Below are positions 3,797-64,000 of a stretch of 64,000 bases of DNA, one piece after another. The number at the start of each line of letters is the position of its first letter. Position 1 is the first letter of the stretch. The notes under the pieces are model-generated. The model searched no databases and was not told where the DNA came from. It saw only the letters and a list, made by a program, of their open reading frames with translations. The stretch lies in the NCBI GenBank assembly GCA_003344405.1, contig NOWV01000170.1, forward strand, positions 1-64,000. Reading direction: 5' to 3'. Source of the stretch: Trichoplax sp. H2. Taxonomy: Eukaryota. The translations under genes were made by a program, and so were the position numbers.

Positions 3797-6700
3797 GTCT
3801 TGAATAGTATTGATTTGTGGATGTATTGTTGTATTAATAGAGAAATATCAGAAAAATATAAAATAAAATTAGTTATTAAACTGTGCATTTTCAAGTTATC
3901 TTATAGCAAAGCTGATTTGTAATATACATCATAATAGTTTAATATTGTATAGTTTATCTTATCCGAAAGATCGAAATAATACAGTAATAATTTATCTATA
4001 ACTTTGTTATGAAAACGAAATTACACATGTTTATAAGAGAATTACAGTTTGAAATCTGAGTAATTGTTACAGCTATAATATTGACGTTATACAGAGTAAA
4101 TAATACAAATATATAATAGAATCACTTGTTAACGTGCGTATTTTAACGTTACGTTGTTGTAACGCTGATTTATGATACATATTTATAATATTTAGTATTC
4201 GATACTTTATCATATTTGAGATAGCGAGTTAGTATAAAAAACATTATACATGACTATACGAGACTTACCGACTAAAGTCCGAGTAATCGTTAGAGCCAAA
4301 AAGTTGACGTTATACAGTTTACATGACACAAATATATAACAAAATCAGCTAAATAGTTTATCGTGTTCGAGATTTGGAGATAGCGTAAAGAAATGCAAGT
4401 ATAAAATTACTGTAAAGCTAATATACATATGACTATGCGAAACTTACGCGCTAAAATCCGAGTAAACATTATAGCCATAAAGTTGACATCATATAGTGTA
4501 AATGATAAAAGTGTATAATAGAATCATTTGTTAATTTGTACTTTACAAACTTGAACGTTATGTTGTTACAAAGCTGATTTACGATAGACATTATAATATT
4601 TTAGTGTTCGATAGTTTATCGCATCCGAGATATCGCGATATTACAACAACAAGTTTAACTATGGAGCTATCGTAAAAAATCACATGAGATTATGGGAGAC
4701 TTACGCGCTAATATCCGAGTAATCGTTATAGCCATAATGTGGACGTTATACAGTGTACATGATACAAATATATAATAAAGTTAGTTGTTAAATTAAGTAC
4801 TCTAACGTTATGTTGTTACAAAGCTGTTTTGTAATACATATTATGATATTTTAGTGTTCGATAGTTTATCGTATCCGAGATATCGCGAAAGTACAACAAG
4901 AAGTTTAAGTGTGGAGCTATCGTGAAAAAGTACGTAAGATTATGCAAGACTTACGCGCTAAATTCCGAGAAATCGTTATAGCCATAATGTTGACGTCATA
5001 TAGTGTAAATGATAAAAAGTGTGTAATAGAATCATTTGTTAACTTGTGTACTCTAACGTTATGCTATTACATAGCTGATTTGTAATACACATTATAATAC
5101 TTAGTGTTCGATACTTTATCGTATCCGAGATATCGCGATAGTATAACTAGACGTTTAACTACGGAGCTATCGTAAAAATTACATATGATAATTCAAGATT
5201 TATGCGCTGAAATCCGAGTAATCCATAAAGTTGACGATATACAGTGTACATGACACAAATATATAATAAAGTTAGTTGTTAAATTAAGTATTTCAACTTA
5301 TGCTGTTACAAAGCTGACTTATAGTATACGTTATAATATTTAGTTTTCGATAGTTTATCGTATCCGAGATATCGAGATAGTATAAGGTAATACAAGTATG
5401 AAATTACTGTTACGTAAAGTTACATATGACTATTTAAGATTTACACCCTGAAATCCGAATAGTCGTTATAGCCATAATGTCGACGTCGTATAGTGTAAAC
5501 GATATAAAGTGTATAATGGAATCACTTGTAAAGTTGTGTATTTTAAGTTTATGTTACTGTAAGCTGATTTGTGATACACACTATAACATTTTAGTGTATG
5601 ATACTTCATCATCATGGACATATCGAGTTATTACAACAAGAAACTTAGCTATGAAGATTTCTATCACATAAAAATCATACACATGATTAAACGAGACTTA
5701 CAGACTGAAATCCGAGTAATCGTTACAGCAATAAAGTATATATATAATACAAAGTATAAAATAAAATTAGTTATTAAATTGTGTATTTTGAAGTTGTGTT
5801 AGAGCAAAGCAGATTTGTACTATACATTAAATAGTTTAATGCTCTATAGTTTATCTTATCCGAAATATCGAGATAGTACAATAATCGTTTATCTATAAGT
5901 TTGTTACGAAAACAAAATTACGCATGATTATAAGAGACTTACAGCCTGAATTCCGAGTAATCGTTACCGCCATAATGTTGGCGTCATATAAAGAAATGAT
6001 GTAAAGTGCATAATAGAATCACTTGTTAAGATACGTATTTTAACGTTATGCTGTTTAAAAGCTGACTCGTAATACGTATTATAATACGTTAGTATTCGAT
6101 AGCTCATCGTGTTTGAGATATCGAAGTAGTACAACAAGTTTGACTATGAGACGATCATAAATATTACATATGGTTATATAAGATTTATGCTCTGAAATTC
6201 GAGTAATCGTTACAGCTAGAATGTTAACGTTATACAACGTACATAACACAAATGTATAATATTACTAGTTATTAAAACGAGTATTCTATAGTTATGCTGT
6301 TGTAACGCTATTTTGTGATATATGTTAAATATTTTAGTGTTTAATACTTCGTAATATACAAGATATCGAGCTAGTATAAAGAAATCGAACTATAATATTA
6401 TCAAAAAAGTAAAACTACATATGATTATTTAAGATTCAGACTCTGAAATCTAAGTAACTACTAGAGCCATAATATTAACATCATATAATGTAAATGATAC
6501 AAAATATATAATAAAATCAGTTGTACGTTCTGTATTTGAAGTTATTTAATACGTGTATAACTCGAATAAAACAGAGGCTATGATGTTCAAGTTATACGTA
6601 TATTAAGTAAGCTACATAAAACTACTAAAAACATCAACTTTCTAGTTTTACACCTATAAGATACTCGTAATACTGTATATAAAATATAGTCATGTGCAAT

Positions 6701-46237: not shown

Positions 46238-47697
46238 AGTACTGTACACTGTACAGTACTGTACTGTACAGTGTACAGTGTACAGTACGGTACTATGCGT
46301 TAGTGTACTGTACACTGTACATCCACCCAGCTACGGTATTGGTAGGCGGATTCACCAAGCTACTGAAAGCTACGGTAAGCTTGGTGTCATCATTTTTGCT
46401 AGCGATTTGAATCATGCTGTACAATAATATCCATTCAGTCATCACTAGCATTCCTTAGCGTTGTCTGTGACCTATTTTCTTCCGTCAAAAACTCTTGGTG
46501 ACATGGAAAACTCACCTTTCCTTATACAATAAGCAGGTGTAAGCTAGTTGCTTATGTGTGAAATGATCAAATTATGTTGAAATAAATGGTTGTCTAAGCT
46601 GCAAAGAACAAGCTGCAGGCTCTCATCAGTGAGCAATGGGCATCCAAAACATGATCGCCGCAAAGCAACAAGCTGCAGGCTCTCATTCGTCAGCAACACA
46701 TTCACTGCACGCACTGTCTACAGTGCTGTTACTGATGTACTCTGCATTACTGCATGCAAAACATGATCGCTGCAAAGCAACAAGCTGCAGGCTCTCATCC
46801 GTCAGCAATACACTCACTGCACGTACTGTGTACACTGCTGTTACTGATGTACTCTGCACAGTCTGCAGTACAGTACTGCATGCAAAACATGATCGCTGCA
46901 AAGCAACAAGCTGCAGGCTCTCATTTGTCAGCAACACACTCACTGCACGCACTGTCTACAGTGCTGTTACTGATGTACTCTGCATTACTGCATGCAAAAC
47001 ATGATCGCTGCAAAGCAACAAGCTGCAGGCTCTCATCCGTCAGCAATACACTCACTGCACGTACTGTGTACAGTGCTGTTACTGATGTACTCTGCAGTAC
47101 AGTACTGCATGCAAAACATGATCGCTGCAAAGCAACAAGCTGCAGGCTCTCATTCGTCAGCAACACACTCACTGCACGCACTGTCTACAGTGCTGTTACT
47201 GATGTACTCCGCAGTACTGCATGCAAAACATGATCGCTGCAAAGCAACAAGCTGCAGGCTCTCTCATCCGTCAGCAATACACTCACTTGCACGTACTGTG
47301 TACACTGTACTGTACAGTGAACAGTGCTGTTACTGATGTACTCTGCAGTACTGCAAAGCAACAAGATGCAGGCTCTCATTCGTCAGCAATACACTCACAC
47401 TACAGTGCTGTTACTGATGTACTCTGCAGTCTGCAGTACTGCATGCAAAACATGATTGTTGCAAAGCAACAAGATGCAGGCTCTCTGCATCAGTGAGCAA
47501 TGTGAACATTGTGCATTTTACTCGGCTCGCAAATCGCCAGCAAAAATGATGTTACTAGTACAGTACAGTACAACCAGTTCTTTACTGTACAATACCGTAC
47601 AGTGTCTCAGATACAGTACTATACACTCTGGTTAGAGCATCCACTGTACACTGTACACTGTACTGTACAGTACTGTATCGTACTGTACACTGTACGT
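46238..47697. mobile_element. Composite non-autonomous element candidate: TGTACA/GTAC-rich palindromic ends, 22-bp subterminal inverted repeats, internal tandem array
   Basis: CATCATTTTTGCTAGCGATTTG (46388-46409) and CAAATCGCCAGCAAAAATGATG (47530-47551) are inverted with 21/22 matches. TGTACA/GTACTG tracts lie at 46238-46320 and 47640-47697. No transposase and no clear TSD. Confidence 0.5.
46596..47502. repeat. Tandem array of ~112-125-bp units (7-8 copies) alternating between two variants
   Basis: GCAAAACATGATCGCTGCAAAGCAACAAGCTGCAGGCTCTCAT is repeated. Units alternate between ...TCGTCAGCAACACA...CGCACTGTCTA and ...CCGTCAGCAATACA...CGTACTGTGTA. Confidence 0.97.
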
Positions 47698-49267: not shown

Positions 49268-51975
49268 ATGGCCTCATTTCAGTCAATATTTCATGTTGAA
49301 CTACAAGATGATGACTTCGCCCTTGACGACGAGGTATGTACAGTGTATAGATAGTGTACGTATAAACATTGTAGTGCCATTATTCGTGGAAATAATGGTA
49401 GAGACAACTAAAATACTTATATTTAGTAGTCCCTGAAATGTTGTAAGTACATAGTATTGAAATTCGCGTACAGTCAAAAAATAGCATCAAATAACATACA
49501 GACAATATTCTTGGGTATTGATATTAATATTGCAATTATTACTGTTACTGTGTTCCTCCCTGAAGGAATTTGTGCAGGTTGTGAGTCAAATGGATGCTAC
49601 AAAAAGCACTGACTATAAGAATACCAATGATGACTCACCTGGCACTAAAAAGGCAATTACAAATAGTGAAAATGTAACTGAAAAATCATTAAAACGGAAA
49701 AAGCAGTTACAAGCTAGCCCACCAAATCATAAAAAGTCAATCCAGTCAGCATCTAATTCAATAAATACTGACAGTCAATTTGATGGCATAATCGACATGA
49801 ACGACTCACTTCTGTTGTTTGATGACGAAGATCCAGATGTACTGGAAACTTGTAATACAGATATTTCGTCACCTCGCCCACCACTTCAAAATCTAGTCAA
49901 TCATAACAATTTTTCAGCTAATGAAAATGCCTTACAATCCAATCAATGTGTCGATGCGGGTTCAAAAGATAGTACTAGGCTAAACGGCAATGAAATCACG
50001 AAATTGAAAACTAACTCAATCGTAAATAGTAAATACAATTTAAACAGAGTTAATAGCAGTTTCAATGGTAGTCCAAGCAGCCAAATTTCTGAAAGTAATT
50101 ACTCAAGGAACTTAATAAAAGCTAATGAAAGTAATAGTAGCACTACAAAGATAACCAGTATTTGTAAAGCCGCCACAATCAGCTCTAACGCTAATACAGA
50201 ATATAGTAAAGATAGCAACTTGCATAATTCAATTCAAAAAGAGAAAATATCCAAATGGAAAGCATCATTACAAAATAGCAACAAGAAGCATTCGAATTCA
50301 CTTATAGTTCGACGCTTTCCTGGACCTGCTGGTGTACTGCCAAGATTGGTGTGTTAACAGATTACCTGATAACTGACAACTTTTTTGTTAATACTAGTAG
50401 CTAATGTTTTTGATATTCTTGACTTCAGCGCCCTGGGCAAAAAGTAGAAGATGCAATAGCGGCCGTTTGCCGATCTGATACTTCAACATTTATAAAAGAA
50501 AATTCCCGATGGCCGGTAAATTTGCACTCACATAAAACGAACAGACTTATCTAATTGTTAAATATCGGTGTGGAAAGATAAAGATACTCCTAATACATCC
50601 TATTACTATTATATTCATATTCTTGTGTACTGTATTGTAGACTGAACTAAGTACGAATTGTAATCAAATTGAACACGAATTTCCAACTGAATTATGGGAA
50701 AAATCAATCAGCAACCTGCAAAAAAACGATAGTATGAATACGATCAATAACAGTATTCCAGAGATTACTGCATACCTGATGGTTAAAAAATGTACTAAGT
50801 AATACTGTATTATACCCCTTCAACTAGATTGCGCTAAATACTTTGACTATAACATCAACATGATTATGAAGATGGTACGTTAAATACCTAAATTCGTTTG
50901 CGTGATCTCCATAGTAATTTGTAGCCCGAAATAACGAACTCGCGTTTAAATTTATAAATTTCACAGGCTAAACGGAAGCAACTACCAAACAATCGTGTTC
51001 CAGGCCTTCTAACTATCCTAAAAAGTCTAACTCCAACCAACTCTGGAGCGACTGCTGTTTTCTCTGACCCTTCTGGTACAATTATCCTAAAGGGTACCTA
51101 ACAGATATATGTAGCTCAAAATTTGTTTTTTCTATAGGAGAAATAGTTGGCGCTCTGCATCAAAAAGTTCTCGAAGAAAATACAAAACTCCTAGTGCAAG
51201 GAGCTGTTGTAGTATTACAGAAAGTATGTAACTTATTCTGGAAATTACTATTGTAGCATTGTTAGCATCACCAATATAATTATGGTCAGATTAGGATATT
51301 ATAATATCGATCATCTTAATAACATTTCTTTCTATAAAAAAACAAAGGTATCTTTGCTTAGTCCTTCTTCAAAGCAACATTTCCTGAATATTGTCCCTGG
51401 TAATATATTTACGATATATTCACCCATAAATCTGGTAAGATAGCACACTTTTTTTTTACTTTAGTCATATAGTCGAAGTTTCTTATTCACGCCAAAAAAA
51501 CATGTTTATGTAAATTGATAGACTTCCAATGAAGATGATACCATTGCCACAGATGAAAAGTAAGAGTCGGGCTCTCATTTATATGCTAAGTTATTCTTTG
51601 TATACTGATTAATAAGCCTTACAATTTAATCTTAACCTACTGGACGACGATCTGAATTTCATAGTACTCCGGATTTTTATAATCGTTCTCCAAACAGTGC
51701 ACTTGTAAAAGAAGCCGAATCACTTCATGCGGACCATACGGATAGATTTATATGTAGTAATTCGATGAACACCAAACGTGACAAGGAATGCGAATACTCT
51801 AACAACTCCAAGTCACAAATACCAAATTTTTGTCATCTAAATTCCGAAGAAGGTAACTTTGAAACTTTCCTCATTTTTCCTTTGCTTTGTATTTATTGAT
51901 ATATCCGCATTTATAGATGTAGATACCCTACTGAAGGACTTATTGGATGACGATCTATCTGAAGCGCTATTATAA
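49268..51975 (+). CDS. HROB: Homologous recombination OB-fold protein (C17orf53/MCM8IP family), ~11 exons
   Basis: N-terminus MASFQSIFHVELQDDDFALDDE|EFVQVV, then a long Ser/Asn-rich disordered exon ending in the RRFPGPAGVLP motif. OB-fold segment RVPGLLTILKSL...AVFSDPSGEIVGALHQKVLE...LVQGAVVVLQKVSLLSPSSKQHFLNIVPGNI. Acidic tail DVDTLLKDLLDDDLSEALL* with stop at 51973-51975. Confidence 0.9.
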
Positions 51976-54455: not shown

Positions 54456-54746
54456 TCTCTAGTAAAGTACATTGTCTCATCTATAACTGAAAAAGTTTTA
54501 ATTTCGATGCTTTACTAACTTGTTAATCCTTGAAATCACTTGTAAATGAATCTTTTTTTAAGTTTGTATCTGCTAATCTATCTTTTGAGTAGTATTTATT
54601 ATTACGTATACATGCACGAGTTTGCGGTAGTGTTAAAGCTCTAGCACTGTATGTTGTCTCATCCTTGATCAAAGTATTGAATGTTGGATTGCTAAAACTA
54701 CCTGTTCACTCTTTCAAATGACCTACAGGTAAACTTCATCATCATT

Positions 54747-56216
54747 ATGTTGAAGAACATTATCATCGTCGCAGCTATTGGCATATTAGCTTTCTATATA
54801 TTCCCATCTACAAAGAACGAACTGCCAACGTCCGATAAACCTTTCAAAACTAAAAATGCTAACCGTGTTTGGGTGAAAGCTAAAGAAGTACTAAAGGACG
54901 ATAGTCTCAAAAGGCTATATAAAGAATTAAAAACTAAAGACCAAGAATTAATCCAATGGAAGAAAGACAATCGTGATAAGGAAGTTAAAGATACTGCCAT
55001 CAAAGAGAAATTACTAGCAGAAATTAAATCCATAAAGGAAAAGTACAATTTAACCGATGACGGTGTAAAGAAAGCAACACAGGAACCACTCAGATTTAAA
55101 GATTCTCGTTTGCAAGAAATTTGGAGCCAGGTATCCAAATCTCCTTATTACCATTCTTATGAACTGGATAGAATGATGGAAGAAATGGATGATTTGCAAA
55201 ACAAAATTGATAAAGTCAAACGTGAAACAGCTGATGATAACCAAGATGGAAAATCTCAATCCAAACGTAGGTCTAATATACGTATTATCTAATTTTATAC
55301 ATGGATCATGATGACAGTAAATTTTGTATGAGCATACGAGTATAATCACATAAACAATATCAATCATATGCAATGACTAAGTCAAATATGCCCTTGGCTC
55401 AAAAATTATAGACTACTACTCTATCAGTTTTATAAGTCTACAGAATGCGTGATGCTGCTTTAGAGTCTCCTTTGGAGCTATACTCATAATGACTATTTGC
55501 ATGGTACTGTAGGCACACAGAATGCTAGGATGTAATCTTGTATGAAAGAATCGTAATTTTAATTCTTAGATATCTCGACGGTGATACATTAGTTTACTTT
55601 ATTTTATTTGCAATTTTGCCGATTGTAGTAAAATTTACTTTATTTTCCTTTACCAACTTAGCAATGCATGTAGGCGATTAGCACATGTACCTGTACAATC
55701 AATTATATTATAATTATATAATATAAGTTGTTGGTCTTATGCATATACTTAATTAATATGCAATTTTATTTGGTATCGACTAATGTTATAGCTTACAAAA
55801 AGGTGAATAAGGAACTAAAACAATTACATGATCAAGTACAGGAAGATATAAAAGTTCTAGATCAGAAGCACAAAGCTACAGCTAATATGATGCAGAATTC
55901 ACAAATTTTAGAACTATGGAATTTCGCTCTAGATAAAAAATATGGTTTAACTGGTGAAGAATGTGAAAATATCAAAGAAGATTTACGCCACATGTACGCC
56001 AAAGTATTAAAGCAATCCAGATTTTTAGCTAGAGCTCGATCTTTTAGAAAATTTGACGTTGAGGCTCGAGAAATGGGTTATGAAGATGATATGATGGATC
56101 CAGAAATGCAGGATATTGTAAGAGGTCAACAAAAAGTTATACAGAAATGGTATCTTTCTATCTATAGACGAATAACAGGGGAGAATCCACCTGGTATAAA
56201 TCCAGACCTTCTGTAG
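54747..56216 (+). CDS. LRPAP1: Alpha-2-macroglobulin receptor-associated protein (RAP)-like LDL-receptor-family chaperone, 2 coding exons (54747-55266, 55792-56216), ~314 aa
   Basis: Hydrophobic N-terminus followed by three RAP-like helical repeats: PFKTKNANRVWVKA...LYKELKTKDQELIQWKK, FKDSRLQEIWSQV...ELDRMMEEM and QILELWNFA...EECENIKEDLRHMYAKV. A phase-1 intron AAAC|GTAGGT...TTATAG|CT keeps the frame. Confidence 0.8.
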
Positions 56217-57834
56217 TGTCTAAATTTCATTGCTTAAGGTGGATTTAATCTAAAACTAAATAAGAGAGTGTCTTATCAGTTAATGTTTATAATTGCAAAA
56301 AAATATTACCGGTACTATTTTATCTTTAACATATAGACTGTGTAACGTTTTATAGGCTTGGTGAAGTTTTACATTTTTTACCATTATTATTTCATTTCAG
56401 TGTAGAGATCAGAAAAAAAATTTTTGCGGAATTACTGGCACCCTGTAATCCGTCTAATATTTACTACAATGAATACGTGATTGCTATTGATAAATGTGAC
56501 ATCATATAGGTCGATTCGATCAGGACCTACGATAGTCTTGTACTCCTGATTGGTTCATGACCGAAAATATGTGCAATTACTGTTTATCAGAACTAAAAAT
56601 TTAAGCTTTGCCTTATCATTTGATAAATTTAGTGCTTTATAGTGCTGTTATAATTGCCTAATGTACAACATCGTATTTTCATTGGACTTTGGAAAATAAT
56701 TTAAATCCTTTGCGGTATAAGTCAGCCATATTGTTATAGAAGCTGGTTTGCTGAGTTATTGATCAACAATAAATCGTATTAAATTGTCCTATTACATATT
56801 TGAATACTCTATTTCATTTTGGTCAGTAGCTGTCTCAAATTGAAAACTGATTACATTTAATATTCTTATGCTGCAGCTCGATTTTTTTCTTTCAATTGCT
56901 GTATGCGGGCGCGTAGTACCATCGTAGTAAAACTTCGTGCTAGTGTATTTAAAATTTCAGTTATAATTCCTGATTTCAACCTACTTAAGAATCCACTTGC
57001 AGGCTTCATCCAAATTGATTATATACTGGTAGGCTAAGCAACATGCGACAAGCTATAGTAAGCATCAGAAATCTGTCATCACCATGACAACAGGCAATCC
57101 CATTTCTCTGAGTAAAACTAATACTGTATCATAGTAATTCACTTATTCTATACAAACTATCACAAAACTTTCCTCGCCAATGATCCATAAACTTAAGTCC
57201 TTAATTTTTAATATTAGCGCACGTATGCCACGGATAAAAAAGTTTATCTCGTGTGATTTGCATTAAGCCATTAGTTCCTAGAACACCTTGTAATAATAAA
57301 TTTGTTTTTAATTTTCGCTCAACAGAAATATGCGCTTATAGTAGTATTTCCTAGGATGTTGTTATAAATCATTTTTATTTAATAGCTAGGGCGTGTACAA
57401 GAAGAAAAGTTTACTAAATTTGATATGGTATCTATCCAATTCAAATTTTAGATCCGCCTTCTATAACATCAGCTTACGGTCGGTATAATTAGCGCATTAA
57501 AATTGCTTTACTTACAACCTTACAAGTAGTATCACATAAGCCAGCTTCCCTAAAGTGATTACTGCCTACTGTAATATTAATCAGACTTCTTTCTGGAAAA
57601 CGGCCGCCGTAGATAACAAGGTGATTGAGATTTTAGTAATTTACTCTTTACAAAATTAATTTCAAAGCAGGATTCGTACTTCCTGTAGTCAATACTTGTT
57701 AGAAGCTTATTTCTTCTATGGTAAGTTACGTATCTTATGATATACGTATACATTAATTATTAAAGCATTTTTATTTCATATTTTTTGTGTATAATGTCTA
57801 TAGCTGGTATACGAATCTGTAGAAGTTAGTAATT

Positions 57835-60800
57835 ATGGCGGCACAACACCAGCTGGAAACGGTATCTCGAATTCTTAGAGGAGACTTTACTACCGATCAA
57901 AAGATCGATTCCAAAATTATACGCATATTTACAAGTTCTACCTTTACTGGTAAGACATAGATTGAATAAACGGAGTTAAAACTAAGCATATATACAAGCA
58001 TTCAGATACGTTTGACTTAAAGGTATCTCAATAGTCATTTTTGATTCACATCTGCAGTATCATACTGGTACAGTTGACAAATCAATATTTCTTTATCCAT
58101 CAATACATTTGAACCATTTAGATACTGAAGCAGAACGTAATACTCTAATGGAGAAAGTCTACCCTCGATTAAGAATCCATTGCCAGAAAGCTGGATTCGA
58201 GTTTCAAGTAGTGGATATGCGTTGGGGAATTAAAGATGCCTCAACTGATGATCATTCTGTAGTTGAAATCTGCATGAAACAGATCGAGCAAAGTAGACAA
58301 GTCTCCGTTGGCCCATATTTTATAGTAAGAGACTATGCCTATTACAGTATTAAAGCTACTATTCGGATTAAATTATTTCTTTGAGAAAATACCATAATAT
58401 ATAGGAAGCGTTTATAAGAATAAATGTAATTTTATCCATAGGCTCTCCTAGGCCAGAAATACGGTTATAGACCACTACCCGTTCAAATTGATTCTGTTGA
58501 GTTTAATAAATTACTGGCTAGCATTAAGAGCGATCATGAGGCAGACCGGTTACTTCTGCAAGAGTGGTACTATGAAGATACTAATTCAATACCACCAGTT
58601 AACATTTTACAACCAATTAGTTCCAAATACCCTCATTATGTTAACAATCAGGAAAAGGAATTGCAAGACGAAGCTAGACAATCATGGTGGGCAACTTATA
58701 ATCGACTTGGGATTATATTAAGAGATTTAGCTGATCGGTTGGACATTACACAAGATAGTAAGAAGAAGTATTTCATTTCAGGTTGGTATAGTCATTCCTT
58801 AGCAATTAATTTGGCTTCATAGATTACTGAATCAGTAGAGTAGATCATAAATCTTAAGTCAAGAAATCTAACATGTAAACATTATCTTTGCTTAGTGACA
58901 GAAAGGGAGATCCATCAAGCCGTTTTTCAAGGCAACGGTGAAAATAATCATTATTGCTTATGCTTTAAACGAACAATAAGTGATTTAGATCATATGATTG
59001 CTAGTGGTAGTAAACAAGCTGAGCTTTATACGGATGTAGTATCGACAACACAAGAAGTTGATACTCGAGCTCAGACTTTATTAGCTCAACTACGTGAATC
59101 TAAATTACCCGAAAAATTGCCATCAAGTAATATTCTTCACCACACCGTAGAGTTAAATCAGAGTTTAAAGATTGATCGAACTGCTCATCAAGAATATATT
59201 GCTAGTTTTTGCGATGATTATTATCAAAAATTAATGGAGCTAATTAATGCTTCTATCAAGGACTATCATAACAAACAGGAAATTGTTCATGACCCATTAG
59301 TCGTGGAAATTTTACAACATATTCGTTTCTGTCGAGAAAAATGTCGTACATTCCATGGCCGAGAATCGCTATTAGCTCAAGTACAAGCTTATATCAAGCA
59401 GAAGCAGCCATCCCTTTCGCCCTATGCTGTTTACGGTGAATCTGGCAGCGGTAAAACAACATTCATGGCAAAAGTAGCTTATGAATGCAATCAATGGTTA
59501 GATTGCCCTTCTGCCGTCGTTGTGTTGCGCTTTATAGGAATAACGCCGACATCTTCTAACCTTCGTACCTTATTGCATAGTATTTGTACTCAAGCTGACC
59601 GTGCTTATGGATATAGCACAAGGCTGATACCAAAGGTAGGCCAATTTATCAACTCTTTATCATATTCTACTTACTTTTAATTACAGTTTCGTGAATTATT
59701 AGAACTATTAATGTACAATATAGGCTATATATCGGATGCATCTCATGTTCAGATAATCTTTTATATTATATCAATAATTATAATGACCAATATTTTTACT
59801 ATACATCTATTCCATCCGCCAGTGTTTATTTTCATAAAATTTGGGATAATGTATACTTAGATTGCGTACAGTAAAATCGTTGCTACACTCATAATTATCG
59901 TCTTTAAATTACTAGATAACAGTTCGTTATGACAATTTCTGCATAAATGAGATAAGCAGGATGTGATTGATTTGCTTATAAAATAAATGATTCAGTAAGC
60001 CCTTTAGCAAATTGAATCCAGCGTTTTCAAAGTTATAGCTGTAGAGTAGTAGTAATGAAATTAAAAACTAATTATAAAATGTAATATTCAAGTAAAACGT
60101 AAATGCGGCTAAATACAGTCTTCTACTAATAATAATATCTTTCTATCTTTCCTATAACAGCATTTACAAGAACTTATCGACTACTTCACTACCGTTACAG
60201 TCTCCAGAGGAACCGATAGCAAACCCTTAATTATCTGCTTAGATTCCTTAGATCAGTTATCACCAGAAAACGGAGCACTATTACTAGGTTGGCTACCCCA
60301 AACTTGTAGTAGCTCTTTCAAATTAATAACGTCTACTCTATCAGATGATCAGTACCCATGCTATAAGAAATTAATCTCATTTATTCCTACCAGCCATGTT
60401 TTAAAAGTCCCTACTCTAAACAATTCTGATGCTAAGACAGTTCTGCAAAACTGCCTAAAGCTAAGCAATCGAAAAATCAATCAATCACAACAGCAACTGA
60501 TAGATGAAGCATTTACTCAGTGCTCTTTGCCCTTATACGTCAAGCTCATTTCTCATCAAGCAGAGCAATGGCATTCGTTTACGCCTATCCAAGAATTAAA
60601 ATTAGACTTTACTGTTGACCAAGTTATCCAGCACTATTTTCAACAATTAGAAGAAAAATATGGTAAAATTTATGTTTCGCATTGCTTGGCATATATTACC
60701 GCTAGTAAGAACGGATTAACTGAGTTTGAAATTGAAGATCTTTTATCATGTGATGATCAAGTTCTAAATGAAATCTTTCAATATTGGACGCCACCTATTC

Positions 60801-63718
60801 GTCGTCTTCCTCCATTAATATGGGCACGCTTACGAGAAAGCTTAGGCGATTATTTGGTCGAGCGAGGAGCGGATGGCACCCAAGTGTTTGCCTGGTATCA
60901 TCGACAATTTTCAGCTGCTGCCTCTCGAAGATATTTAACAACGGATTCTACATCATCAATACGTAATTATATATATAAAACTCTTGCAGATTATTTCTCT
61001 GATCGTTGGTATGCTGGTAAAGAATACACTGATTCAAATGGTTTAACCAGATTGTTGGATCGACATACTACTGCTCAACCATTAATTTTAACCGAAAATT
61101 CTAGAAGTCGCCAAATTGTCTACAATTTGCGTAAGATGTCGGAACTGCCTTACCATTTAATTCAATTACAAGAAATTGATCGACTAAAGCAAGATATCTT
61201 ATTTAATTTCGATTGGATCTATCATAAAATTTCAGCGACATCATTCTATCATGTTTTGGATGATTATATGGCTGCAGTAGCGGTTTTTCCTGATGATATC
61301 GAAATTAATGTAATTTATAAGACCATGAGATTATCTTCAACTGCTCTACTCGATTCTGCCTCTCACTTACCATTCCAATTATTAGGAAGGCTATCTAGTC
61401 ATCAATTAAAGCAAATCGACATAAATAACCACTTCGATCTACTACAAAAGCTAATGCAAGATGCTCATTGCAAAACGATAGATTGTATGAGGCCATCGAT
61501 TGCGTGCTTAACAGCACCTGGTGGTGCTTTAATCCAAGCAGTTATTGGCCATACTAGACGCATTAAAGTAATTGCATCAACTACTGATGGGAAACTATTA
61601 ATTACAGCCGATAACGATAAAACAGCCAAGATATGGGATAGCCAACACTTGCGGTTATTGAATAAAATTTCAGGTTTAGGGGCATTAATCCGCATTATTC
61701 CTGCATGTCAGAACGAATATTTCGTTGCTCCGTGCGTGGATAAAGTTCAAATTTGGCATATTGAATCTTGCCAATTAGCCAATGAGTTTTCTTTAAAATG
61801 GAGCTATGCAGCGGTAGTTTCTAGGAGTGATGATTCTAAATTAATATTCATGGATAATGACGATGATCATATCGTCGTATGGGATATGAGAGAAAAGAAA
61901 GAATTGGATAGATTTTGTTATTCATCTTGGTGGCAAATAAAAGATTATCGACGAGGACTTATTGGTGCTTATAAAGATATCGTTGTCCTATATGCTTTAA
62001 CTGATGAAGGCTTAAAGATTCAATGTATTAACTTTCGTACTGATGAAATTACTCTAAACATTCAGGAAGAAAAAGTAGATGTGGAAAATGGTTGTGTTAC
62101 CAGTCAAGGTCAATTAATCTTACCGTTGCAGCGAAATTTAATTAAAATCTACGATCTAAATACCAATCAGCATATTAAAGATATACCGGGAAGTTCTCTA
62201 CGCGAATTTACTGGGGAAAAGAAACATTTAATGGGGCTTGTTCAGTCTGAAAATTTATTTACCTGTACTCAAGGTAAAATTGCTTATTGGAATCTAACAT
62301 CAAGCATTAGTACTCCATTACTAGAATTGCAAGATGCTGATATACCCAATGTTATCCACTTTCTGCATAAGGAAAATGGCAATAATCACTCCTATGTCAT
62401 AGCAACAGCAAAAGGCAATTGCATCTGTTTATGGAAATGTCAGGCAAGCGATGGATTCGATTTCAATCGAGAAGCTAATCAATCTAGTACAGCTTTTAGC
62501 CCAACCCAAATTATGGCACTGTCTCCTGATCAACCGCGTTCCTCCTTAGTCAGTTATGAGGCAGAAAAACAACTTTGCACCGTATGGAACATGAATCAAC
62601 AACCCATCTTGATCCTGAAAAAAGTCAAAACTAAATTATTTAATCAGGGCTTTCTTTTCATCGATAGTAAAAGTGCTCTTGTACGTGATTATGTCATTAA
62701 TTTACAGACCCAATCGCCTATATGCCAATTACAGTGCAATCAAATCAATCCAGATACTATAGCTAAGAACAGTAAAATCATTGAAGAAAATAAATTAGCT
62801 ATCTTATCTCAAGACTGTACCAATATATTTATTTTTTCATTATCGGATGGTAAGATCGTAACAACAATTTCATTTCCTGCTAATAGTACATGCCATAAGG
62901 TTATTTATAGCGAGAATGGCCGAGTTGCTGTAACCCTAATTGGCAGTGATATCATGGCTTGGAATATCGTTGACGGTAAATTAATAGCAAAAAATACTCC
63001 CGCAACTCAACTCGATCATATTTGTTTAGACAACCAAGGCCACTATGTGGCCATGTTTAGTTATCATGGCGAAGTCAATAAAGATGGAACATCCAACTCG
63101 TTAGTCCACCTTTGGAATTTAGCCAAACAACAATTATTAACTTATAAATTAAACTACAGTCCACGAGCTGGAGGTCTGGCACTAACCAAGCAATATATTC
63201 TTGGAGGAGATAATTCTGGTGATATCTCGTTGTGGGCAACTGGTGATGGTAGTTTAGTTCAGCAACTGCATGGCCATTATCACGATGTATATAAAATAAT
63301 TATTAATCAACACGAAGATCGAATGTTGACCATGTCCGAATATGATTACGATGGTACTATCCGTTTATGGGATTTATCAGCTTTAGTTGAGTTAGCAGCA
63401 TTTCGCCCAGATTGGCGAATTGAAAGATCCAATATAGCTTTAATTGATCATGGTCAAAAAATTGTCATAACGTTAGATGGCATCAATCAGTTTATTATCG
63501 TTCAATTTCATTCTGCTGCTGTTGATGAAAATCAAATTATAACTGTATTTGAAGACGAAATTATTGATGTAAGACCAACAACTATCGACTTATCCCAAAT
63601 ACAACCTCCAAAAGATGCTGGAACAAATCAGCAATCACTGTTCCAAGCACAAGCCAAGCTAGAGAAAAAATCCAAGAAAAATCGGAAAAATGTAGCGAGA
63701 TCGTGTATACTATCATAA
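57835..63718 (+). CDS. NACHT and WD-repeat domain-containing protein (NWD1/NWD2 family; DUF4062-NACHT-WD40), 5 exons, ~1651 aa
   Basis: Exons 57835-57949, 58122-58324, 58442-58781, 58896-59635 and 60161-63718 total 4956 nt and are in frame. DUF4062-like IRIFTSSTFTDTEAERNTL...VDMRWGI, Walker A GESGSGKT, Walker B LIICLDSLDQL, YNLRKMSELPYHL, GH...WD repeats and a C-terminal CILS. Confidence 0.93.
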
Positions 63719-64000
63719 GTTAGATCTGAAGAAGTTGAAACAATATCTGACAGAGTCACAGCAATAGTAGTGAGGTAACAAACCAGATGCTGATTCTTTT
63801 CTTTTAACTACAGCATAGATTTGATTATGCAATAAAATACTGAAATAGTATTTCTTCACGGTAGATTAAATTATTTAAGATCAAGAATGATTCTTGCGTT
63901 ATTCATTCCAATAAACTGATGAAGTAATGAATAAAACTGCTAAACATATTTTCATGAAAGATAATTTGTCTTTGAAGAATTCTCCTAAATGAATTTTAAG

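Follow-up and report, generated by a model that had tools for sequence, protein, structure and literature searches.

Does a large STAND-class NTPase of the placozoan Trichoplax carry, at its extreme C-terminus, a lipid anchor comparable to that of K-Ras4B? The question is raised by a gene near the end of a 64,000-nucleotide stretch of DNA from Trichoplax sp. H2 (contig NOWV01000170.1 of assembly GCA_003344405.1, positions 1 to 64,000; hereafter the window), for which a preliminary description had proposed that a protein with a DUF4062 effector, a NACHT switch, and a WD40 sensor ends in a polybasic segment and a CaaX box. The gene lies on the + strand, with its ATG at 57835 and its stop codon at 63716-63718, and both the sequence and spliced contigs indicate a product of 1651 amino acids (aa). 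The C-terminus of this protein reads ...KLEKKSKKNRKNVARS-CILS, and we conclude that this ending is probably a real and functional prenyl anchor, judging from its residues and from the recurrence of the box in homologues. More generally, the family to which the protein belongs is probably anchored to membranes by a lipid, a trait that its C-terminal sequences suggest to be ancient.

The C-terminal tail and the gene that encodes it

The tail is the end of an open frame of 1186 codons (60158-63718), and the polybasic-CaaX ending first proposed is confirmed by the sequence, the frame, and the stop codon. The polybasic patch KLEKKSKKNRKNVARS (residues 1632-1647; 63656-63703) is directly followed by the CaaX box C1648-I-L-S1651 (63704-63715) and the TAA stop (63716-63718). 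The end originally assigned to this feature, 63718, is correct, whereas its start, 63655, lies one base ahead of the first Lys codon at 63656. The 16 residues before C1648 include eight Lys or Arg and a single Glu, giving a net charge of +7, and in a scan of charge windows this 16-aa segment is the most basic of the entire protein, the top eight windows all starting at residues 1629-1636. C1648 stands exactly at -4 from the C-terminus and is the sole Cys within the last 80 residues; thus, the tail has no second signal of the palmitoylation type but only the basic one. The WD-type Pfam matches stop near residue 1572-1575, and the region past the last WD repeat (residues 1576-1631; 63488-63655) is Pro/Gln-rich at its end. 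The segment before the CaaX box is rich in Pro, Gln, and Lys, and this composition, together with the point at which the WD matches end, suggests an exposed and flexible linker.

By its Pfam matches, the gene encodes an NWD-family STAND NTPase with a DUF4062-NACHT-winged helix-WD40 architecture, in agreement with the effector, switch, and sensor modules of the preliminary description, all of which pass their Pfam cut-offs. DUF4062 (PF13271) is matched over residues 30-116 at 37.2 bits, where the cut-off is 24.7, and NACHT (PF05729) over residues 396-563 (37.5 bits against 26.7), with the P-loop GESGSGKT visible in the translation. In addition, the NACHT domain is followed by an NWD1-like winged helix, HTH_NWD1 (PF25469; residues 618-729; 67.8 bits against 27). 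The WD40 family (PF00400) reaches 31.1 bits against 27, and many propeller models match about residues 912-1575, below their own whole-domain cut-offs.

The basic patch also raises the prospect that KKSKKNRK is a nuclear localisation signal, with the protein either nuclear or tethered by its farnesyl group to the nuclear envelope in the manner of lamins, a reading that we consider highly improbable. The stretch resembles the classical monopartite signal, with its consensus K-K/R-x-K/R, and the polybasic regions next to the CaaX boxes of some small GTPases double as nuclear signals; however, a basic patch abutting a farnesylated Cys usually acts on membranes. Moreover, the Pfam scan shows no domain of nuclear function or DNA binding, and the mouse relative is placed at the endoplasmic reticulum (ER) and mitochondria in the passages of PMC11897295 consulted.

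The gene model that delivers this tail is built from coding exons at 57835-57949, 58122-58324, 58442-58781, 58896-59635, and 60161-63718, which sum to 4956 nt, or 1651 codons and a stop. The encoded protein is identical to the annotated Trichoplax sp. H2 "NWD2" protein P0001, at 100% identity and 100% coverage and with the same last 30 residues. The start-codon exon (57804-57949; ATG at 57835-57837) supplies residues 1-38 plus the first base of the D39 codon, and with them the DUF4062 start IRIFTSSTFT, as supported by the sequence, a joint in X5 and X7 (the transcript runs introduced below), and the agreement in length with P0001. The second coding exon holds part of the DUF4062/TIR-like domain, as judged by Pfam, between the joints 57949|58122 and 58324|58442, and the third the end of DUF4062 and a linker, with joints in X5 and X7 and, for 58324|58442, also in X4. 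The fourth carries linker and the N-terminal half of NACHT with the Walker A motif GESGSGKT, as seen in the translation and the Pfam match, and is followed by the joint 59635|60161 in X4, X5, and X7. The coding part of the terminal exon spans the remainder of NACHT (to about 60451), HTH_NWD1 (60614-60949), a helical region, the WD40 repeats (about 61496-63487), the tail, and the stop, in an open frame with no joint.

Evidence from transcripts was drawn from four public runs (X1, X4, X5, and X7, from four studies) out of the 19 run rows matching the stretch. All five GT..AG joints of the gene are present in X5, in one contig of 5985 nt, and in X7; three of the five are present in X4, which is recorded as RNA, and none in X1. 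The last of these, listed as 'RNA?', spans every intron unjoined and resembles DNA or unspliced RNA; because all introns are covered without any joint, it is not taken as evidence of expression. Between 60159 and 64000, no joint is seen in any of the four runs, leaving a last exon of 3.5 kb without an intron, and therefore the stop, along with the CILS ending, is present in the mature mRNA. The preliminary description had left the stop to be confirmed from RNA, and it indeed lies within spliced contigs, with no splicing out before 63718. In X1, X5, and X7, the tail region 63655-63718 is covered without any listed difference, those closest to it lying at 63425 and 63724; the absence of an X4 contig across 63641-63751 is an uninformative gap in a low-depth assembly. 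Contigs of this kind cannot rule out rare isoforms, nor do they show the true end of the RNA.

The quality of the box can be judged against a published yeast screen that covered all 8000 CXXX motifs (PMC10320760) and reports on the yeast enzyme and reporter proteins rather than on the Trichoplax tail. In the parts of that study drawn upon here, CILS has a Ydj1 heat-map score of 5.02, where the authors' cut-off is 3, and a Ras-based score of 9.18; the corresponding values for the H-Ras motif CVLS are 4.63 and 8.37, and yeast Ras2 CIIS has a heat-map score of 4.07. The raw Ydj1 enrichment factors (1.76 for CILS and 0.49 for CVLS) were set aside as a measure, as this reporter disfavours canonically processed motifs according to the same parts of PMC10320760. 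With Leu at a2 and Ser at X, the motif is permissive at these two positions. Thus, by its residues and by a score above the yeast cut-off, CILS is a canonical farnesyltransferase-type box, as had been proposed from its terminal Ser. In a yeast screen for geranylgeranyltransferase type I (GGTase-I; PMC11304957), the values for CILS (0.47 and 0.29) are uninformative.

Cys at -4 across the NWD family

The preliminary description suggested a survey of homologue C-termini, and such a survey recovers the box repeatedly. Among the best 150 matches from an exhaustive HMMER search of 1.84 billion cluster representatives, 40 have a Cys at -4, while Cys at -1, -2, and -3 is seen in 1, 4, and 7, and at -5 to -12 in 7, 3, 2, 4, 1, 1, 2, and 2 of the same 150. 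Together with the charge and the single Cys of the Trichoplax tail, this enrichment exceeds what would be expected by chance. A word-indexed search with the last exon gave Cys at -4 in 11 of the best 120 matches, the query included. The residues at a2 and X are canonical in 39 of the 40 representatives with Cys at -4, a2 being Leu, Ile, or Val in 35; the X position is taken by Leu in 19, Gln in 6, Val in 4, Ile and Ser in 3 each, Met and Phe in 2 each, and Thr in 1. Three residues before the Cys, at -7, a Ser is present in 37 of the 40, usually with Lys or Arg just ahead of it. Net charge over the 16 upstream residues averages +2.5 (maximum +6) among the 40 with Cys at -4 and -1.2 among the 110 without, so that the +7 of the Trichoplax tail exceeds every one of the CaaX-bearing representatives. 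Members with the box come from Saccoglossus, Owenia, Antedon, Branchiostoma, Tubulanus, Rhabditophanes, Pinctada, Argopecten, Acanthaster, Asterias, Tegillarca, and lampreys, and a choanoflagellate homologue, P0234 (a transcript of Salpingoeca kvevrii), ends in ...KGSACCMIL, which is the full S-x-x-C-a-a-X motif.

The box is still more regular in vertebrate NWD1. With lamprey NWD1 as the query, a CaaX end is present in each of the 15 proteins examined from lampreys, elasmobranchs, and amphibians, and with caecilian NWD1 as the query the same is true of 117 of the best 120 vertebrate proteins. These cover amphibians, coelacanth, lungfish, sturgeons, turtles, birds, platypus, marsupials, and placentals (squirrels, rodents, carnivores, bats, and monkeys), in a set that contained no human or mouse sequence. 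The three proteins without the box are P0345, P0411 (annotated 'isoform X3'), and P0420 (annotated 'partial'). The commonest boxes are CLLV (42), CLIV (23), and CHIV (16), and the 117 CaaX tails have Ser at -7 without exception, Gln at -6 in 113, and a mean upstream charge of +2.8. In the sections of PMC11304957 used above, CLIV has a value of 0.069 at 37 °C, among the strongly de-enriched 'canonical' set (<0.2), and CLLV has ambiguous values of 1.0 and 1.7, a hint that tails with X = Val can be geranylgeranylated.

Phosphorylation switches adjoin the prenylated Cys of several small GTPases, and, speculatively, the near-invariant Ser at -7 with its basic flanks may be a phosphorylation site that acts as such a switch beside the lipid anchor. 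In 5 of the 40 representatives, the CaaX Cys has another Cys immediately before it (e.g., ...ACCIVL, ...ACCNIS, and ...VCCVL), and the tails of many frog NWD1 proteins contain one more Cys some nine residues upstream (...WWKCKEQ...). These extra Cys residues are possible palmitoylation sites that the Trichoplax tail does not share. Many relatives in the other main clade end in strongly acidic sequences, such as ...DDDKDDDDSYIA in a cnidarian-like group and ...DTDEEESDEDD in molluscs, and C-termini of two opposite kinds seem to exist within the family. Three CKSM, CKSQ, and CKQQ endings and one acidic CQIL ending from the cnidarian-like group were judged to be doubtful boxes, as their close relatives end otherwise.

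Proposed anchoring mechanism, age of the box, and competing explanations

The reading that we favour, and hold to be moderately likely, is that the Trichoplax protein is farnesylated at C1648 and held, together with the basic patch, on acidic membranes, most likely the plasma membrane. Following farnesylation, the ILS tripeptide would be removed and the new C-terminus methylated, as in the usual CaaX pathway, and the farnesyl group and the patch would then keep the protein on the cytoplasmic face of such membranes. The plasma membrane would be the likeliest target by the rule that applies to K-Ras4B, namely a polybasic second signal and no palmitoylatable Cys. Anchoring by farnesyl and charge would mean that the WD40 propellers sense their ligand and the NACHT domain drives oligomerisation at the membrane surface, where the TIR-like effectors would be brought together. 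K-Ras4B itself has a run of six Lys, a farnesylated CVIM box, and inner-leaflet targeting. Like it, the Trichoplax tail has a Lys-rich patch with an embedded Ser directly before the box and no Cys open to palmitoylation, and the same mechanism, with farnesyl and electrostatics acting on acidic inner-leaflet lipids, is predicted for it. The two differ in that one is a small GTPase and the other a 1651-aa STAND NTPase, and in that the Trichoplax patch is interrupted (KK-S-KK-N-RK). The lipid-anchored STAND-class NTPase of the preliminary description is thus supported by the architecture, the spliced stop, the CILS score, and the conservation in the family, with lipidation and plasma membrane residence standing as predictions.

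The age of the box was approached through the phylogeny of the region comprising the C-terminal part of NACHT, the winged helix, and the helical region. A FastTree analysis of 261 rows gives three groups: two are CaaX-rich (one with vertebrate NWD1), and in the third, where the query forms a long basal branch, most tails are acidic. Rows with at least 400 aligned residues (189) were thinned to 110 by removing those at least 55% identical to a kept row, and then to 97 by dropping 13 long or compositionally odd rows (P0179, P0191, P0192, P0205, P0215, P0217, P0221, P0222, P0232, P0233, P0240, P0246, and P0258). The resulting IQ-TREE phylogeny (LG+C20 PMSF, quick search; no vertebrate NWD2 in the data) splits, with a support of 99 in the Shimodaira-Hasegawa-like approximate likelihood ratio test (SH-aLRT), into 56 rows (33 CaaX, none acidic, and including vertebrate NWD1) versus 41 rows (21 acidic, 18 other, and 2 CaaX).

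Several points weigh against the favoured reading. The query falls on the mostly acidic-tailed side of this split (SH-aLRT 99), where it and the choanoflagellate P0234 are the only CaaX rows. At -7 the tail has Ala, and Ser is at -5 instead, so that it departs from the S-x-x-C-a-a-X pattern, whose S-x-x-C register is seen in 37 of the 40 representatives; because this register is missing, the Trichoplax ending could be independent, even fortuitous. A BLAST comparison of the last 260 residues with the fetched proteins aligns the WD repeats only and leaves the tail unaligned, so that homology of the tail is not demonstrable by alignment. No other placozoan protein is found among the matches of any of the homologue searches, and no lipid has been observed on the Trichoplax protein or on any NWD protein. 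The farnesyltransferase, the CaaX protease, and the methyltransferase are assumed to be present in Trichoplax from their general conservation in eukaryotes. Finally, the sole experimental localisation in the family, that of the mouse protein, is to the ER and mitochondria, and not to the plasma membrane, in the passages of PMC11897295 consulted.

Some of these same points, namely the lack of Ser at -7, the unalignable tail, the grouping with acidic-tailed relatives, and a lipidation without experimental evidence, speak for an unmodified ending, in which drift placed a Cys at -4 of a basic tail of low complexity, whose patch does something else or nothing. We regard this as improbable. The family shows a strong enrichment of Cys at -4, and the box itself is canonical (Ile, Leu, and Ser at a1, a2, and X) and scores highly in the yeast screen. 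Further, in a 40-row set rooted on P0234 and analysed under a weaker model (LG+G4), forcing the query to group with the NWD1/CaaX clade costs only 1.73 log-likelihood units and is not rejected by the approximately unbiased (AU) test (p-AU 0.351). The box of the choanoflagellate protein also makes retention cheaper than a new gain. By its distribution, the CaaX box is an old, conserved trait of the family, and, because P0234 has the canonical S-x-x-C-a-a-X ending, we read both the family and its box as predating animals. By parsimony on an unresolved tree, the acidic tails would be derived, and the Trichoplax box would be more simply retained than newly gained, since an outgroup-like choanoflagellate protein has it and fewer changes are needed, though convergence is possible.

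A different alternative accepts the box but not the destination: the CaaX ending would be used, with the protein residing on endomembranes (ER, Golgi, or mitochondria-associated membranes), or with the prenyl group serving mainly as a protein-protein contact. This we hold to be rather unlikely for Trichoplax, though more plausible than drift. It draws strength from the fact that CaaX processing takes place at the ER and from the mildly basic nature of most family tails (mean +2.5 to +2.8). On the other side stand the charge of the Trichoplax tail, +7 versus a maximum of +6 in the 40 CaaX representatives, and its lack of a second Cys, a strongly basic, single-Cys pattern that sends K-Ras4B to the plasma membrane. 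Mouse Nwd1, a protein associated with steatohepatitis-like liver disease, with purinosome assembly, and with seizures, also speaks for an endomembrane location: in the available passages of PMC11897295, immuno-electron microscopy detects it at or close to the ER membrane, on the cytoplasmic face. Its C-terminal fragment suffices for ER localisation, and its N-terminal fragment is seen in the cytoplasm or nucleus. The ER association is attributed there to the WD40 domain, and the words prenyl and CAAX are absent from those passages; the word prenyl is likewise absent from the parts consulted of a 2020 paper on the purinosome. The vertebrate tails, with Val or Leu at X and a weaker charge, may be geranylgeranylated instead and so stay on endomembranes, a proposal that fits the ER data on mouse Nwd1.

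Flanking features, known systems, and implications

Around the coding region, the contigs extend the gene in both directions. A 5' untranslated exon (57500-57620, + strand) begins upstream of 57500 and is joined in contigs of X4, X5, and X7 from 57620 to 57804, across a 183-nt GT..AG intron (57621-57803; joint listed as 57618/57802, cut +2). The 3' untranslated region runs from 63719 to 64000 and beyond, as the X5 contig (record 15, 5985 nt) is at its position 5651 on base 64000 and continues for 334 nt more. Just upstream of the NWD gene, open frames at 54696-55292 (+) and 55722-56216 (+) have Pfam matches to the alpha-2-macroglobulin receptor-associated protein (RAP/LRPAP1), the former to its N-terminal domain (PF06400, 4.6e-11) and the latter to its C-terminal domain (PF06401, 3.1e-07); they are probably two exons of one gene. 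For two further frames, at 46736-47233 (+; 165 codons) and 49485-50357 (+; 290 codons), Pfam gives nothing at E <= 0.001. The G+C content of the window is 29-40%.

Among known systems, vertebrate NWD1 has the same architecture as the Trichoplax protein (DUF4062, NACHT, HTH_NWD1, and WD40) and likewise ends in a CaaX box. The tails differ: those of vertebrate NWD1 follow K-x-S-Q-x-C-a-a-V/L, with a geranylgeranyl-type X, a modest mean charge of +2.8, and Ser at -7 throughout, in contrast to the Ser at X, the Ala at -7, and the charge of +7 in Trichoplax; the tree also sets the Trichoplax protein outside the NWD1 clade, albeit not firmly. Several innate-immune sensors or effectors, namely OAS1 p46, ZAP-L, and GBP1/2/5, are directed to membranes by a C-terminal CaaX box, yet they have unrelated folds and none is a STAND NTPase. 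Apaf-1, with which NWD proteins have been compared in the literature, has a CARD effector and an NB-ARC ATPase, is soluble, and is not known to carry a CaaX box. NLRP3 is also a NACHT protein drawn to a membrane by a lipid and a basic patch (PMC11392533); however, its lipid is a reversible internal palmitate and its membrane the trans-Golgi, whereas the Trichoplax protein is predicted to have an irreversible C-terminal isoprenoid. By its Pfam match, the N-terminal domain of the Trichoplax protein belongs to DUF4062, a family for which a 2026 preprint reports TIR-like NAD+ hydrolases, including bacterial Swarozyc and human TEP1; in the assay of that study, purified full-length human NWD1 and NWD2 were inactive (10.64898/2026.05.01.722283).

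The literature searched does not tie NWD1 to a CaaX box or to prenylation, nor does it mention a family-wide box in NWD1-type proteins, which agrees with the remark in the preliminary description that such an anchor is not emphasised for the vertebrate protein; subscription journals, UniProt, PRENbase, and prenylome supplements lay outside its scope and may flag the motif. The matches obtained for NWD1 were irrelevant, being a mouse gene-list paper and a review in which an Nwd1 paper is merely one of the references. Likewise, for NACHT and CaaX together, the titles and abstracts of the matches listed include no native CaaX box on a NACHT protein. Against this background, we put forward tentatively, and with rather less confidence than the anchoring of the Trichoplax protein itself, that the whole NWD1-type family, from choanoflagellates to mammals, may be a prenylated, membrane-resident STAND machine. 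The near-invariant (basic)-S-x-x-C-a-a-X ending would be a lipid anchor with a phosphorylation switch, and would account for the ER-membrane location of mouse Nwd1. The protein of the placozoan would represent an extreme, K-Ras4B-like plasma membrane version, and the family would be the first STAND/NLR-like class to be sited by an isoprenoid.

STAND/NLR-type switches are usually regarded as soluble cytosolic sensors. NLRP3 and NOD1/2 require lipidation, and where such switches assemble is under active study. If the present reading is true, a conserved CaaX box would have fixed NWD proteins at a membrane since before the origin of animals. It would also provide a simple cause for the ER-membrane association of mouse Nwd1, which its authors ascribed to the WD40 domain, and would place a TIR-like, possibly NAD+-consuming effector at a membrane.

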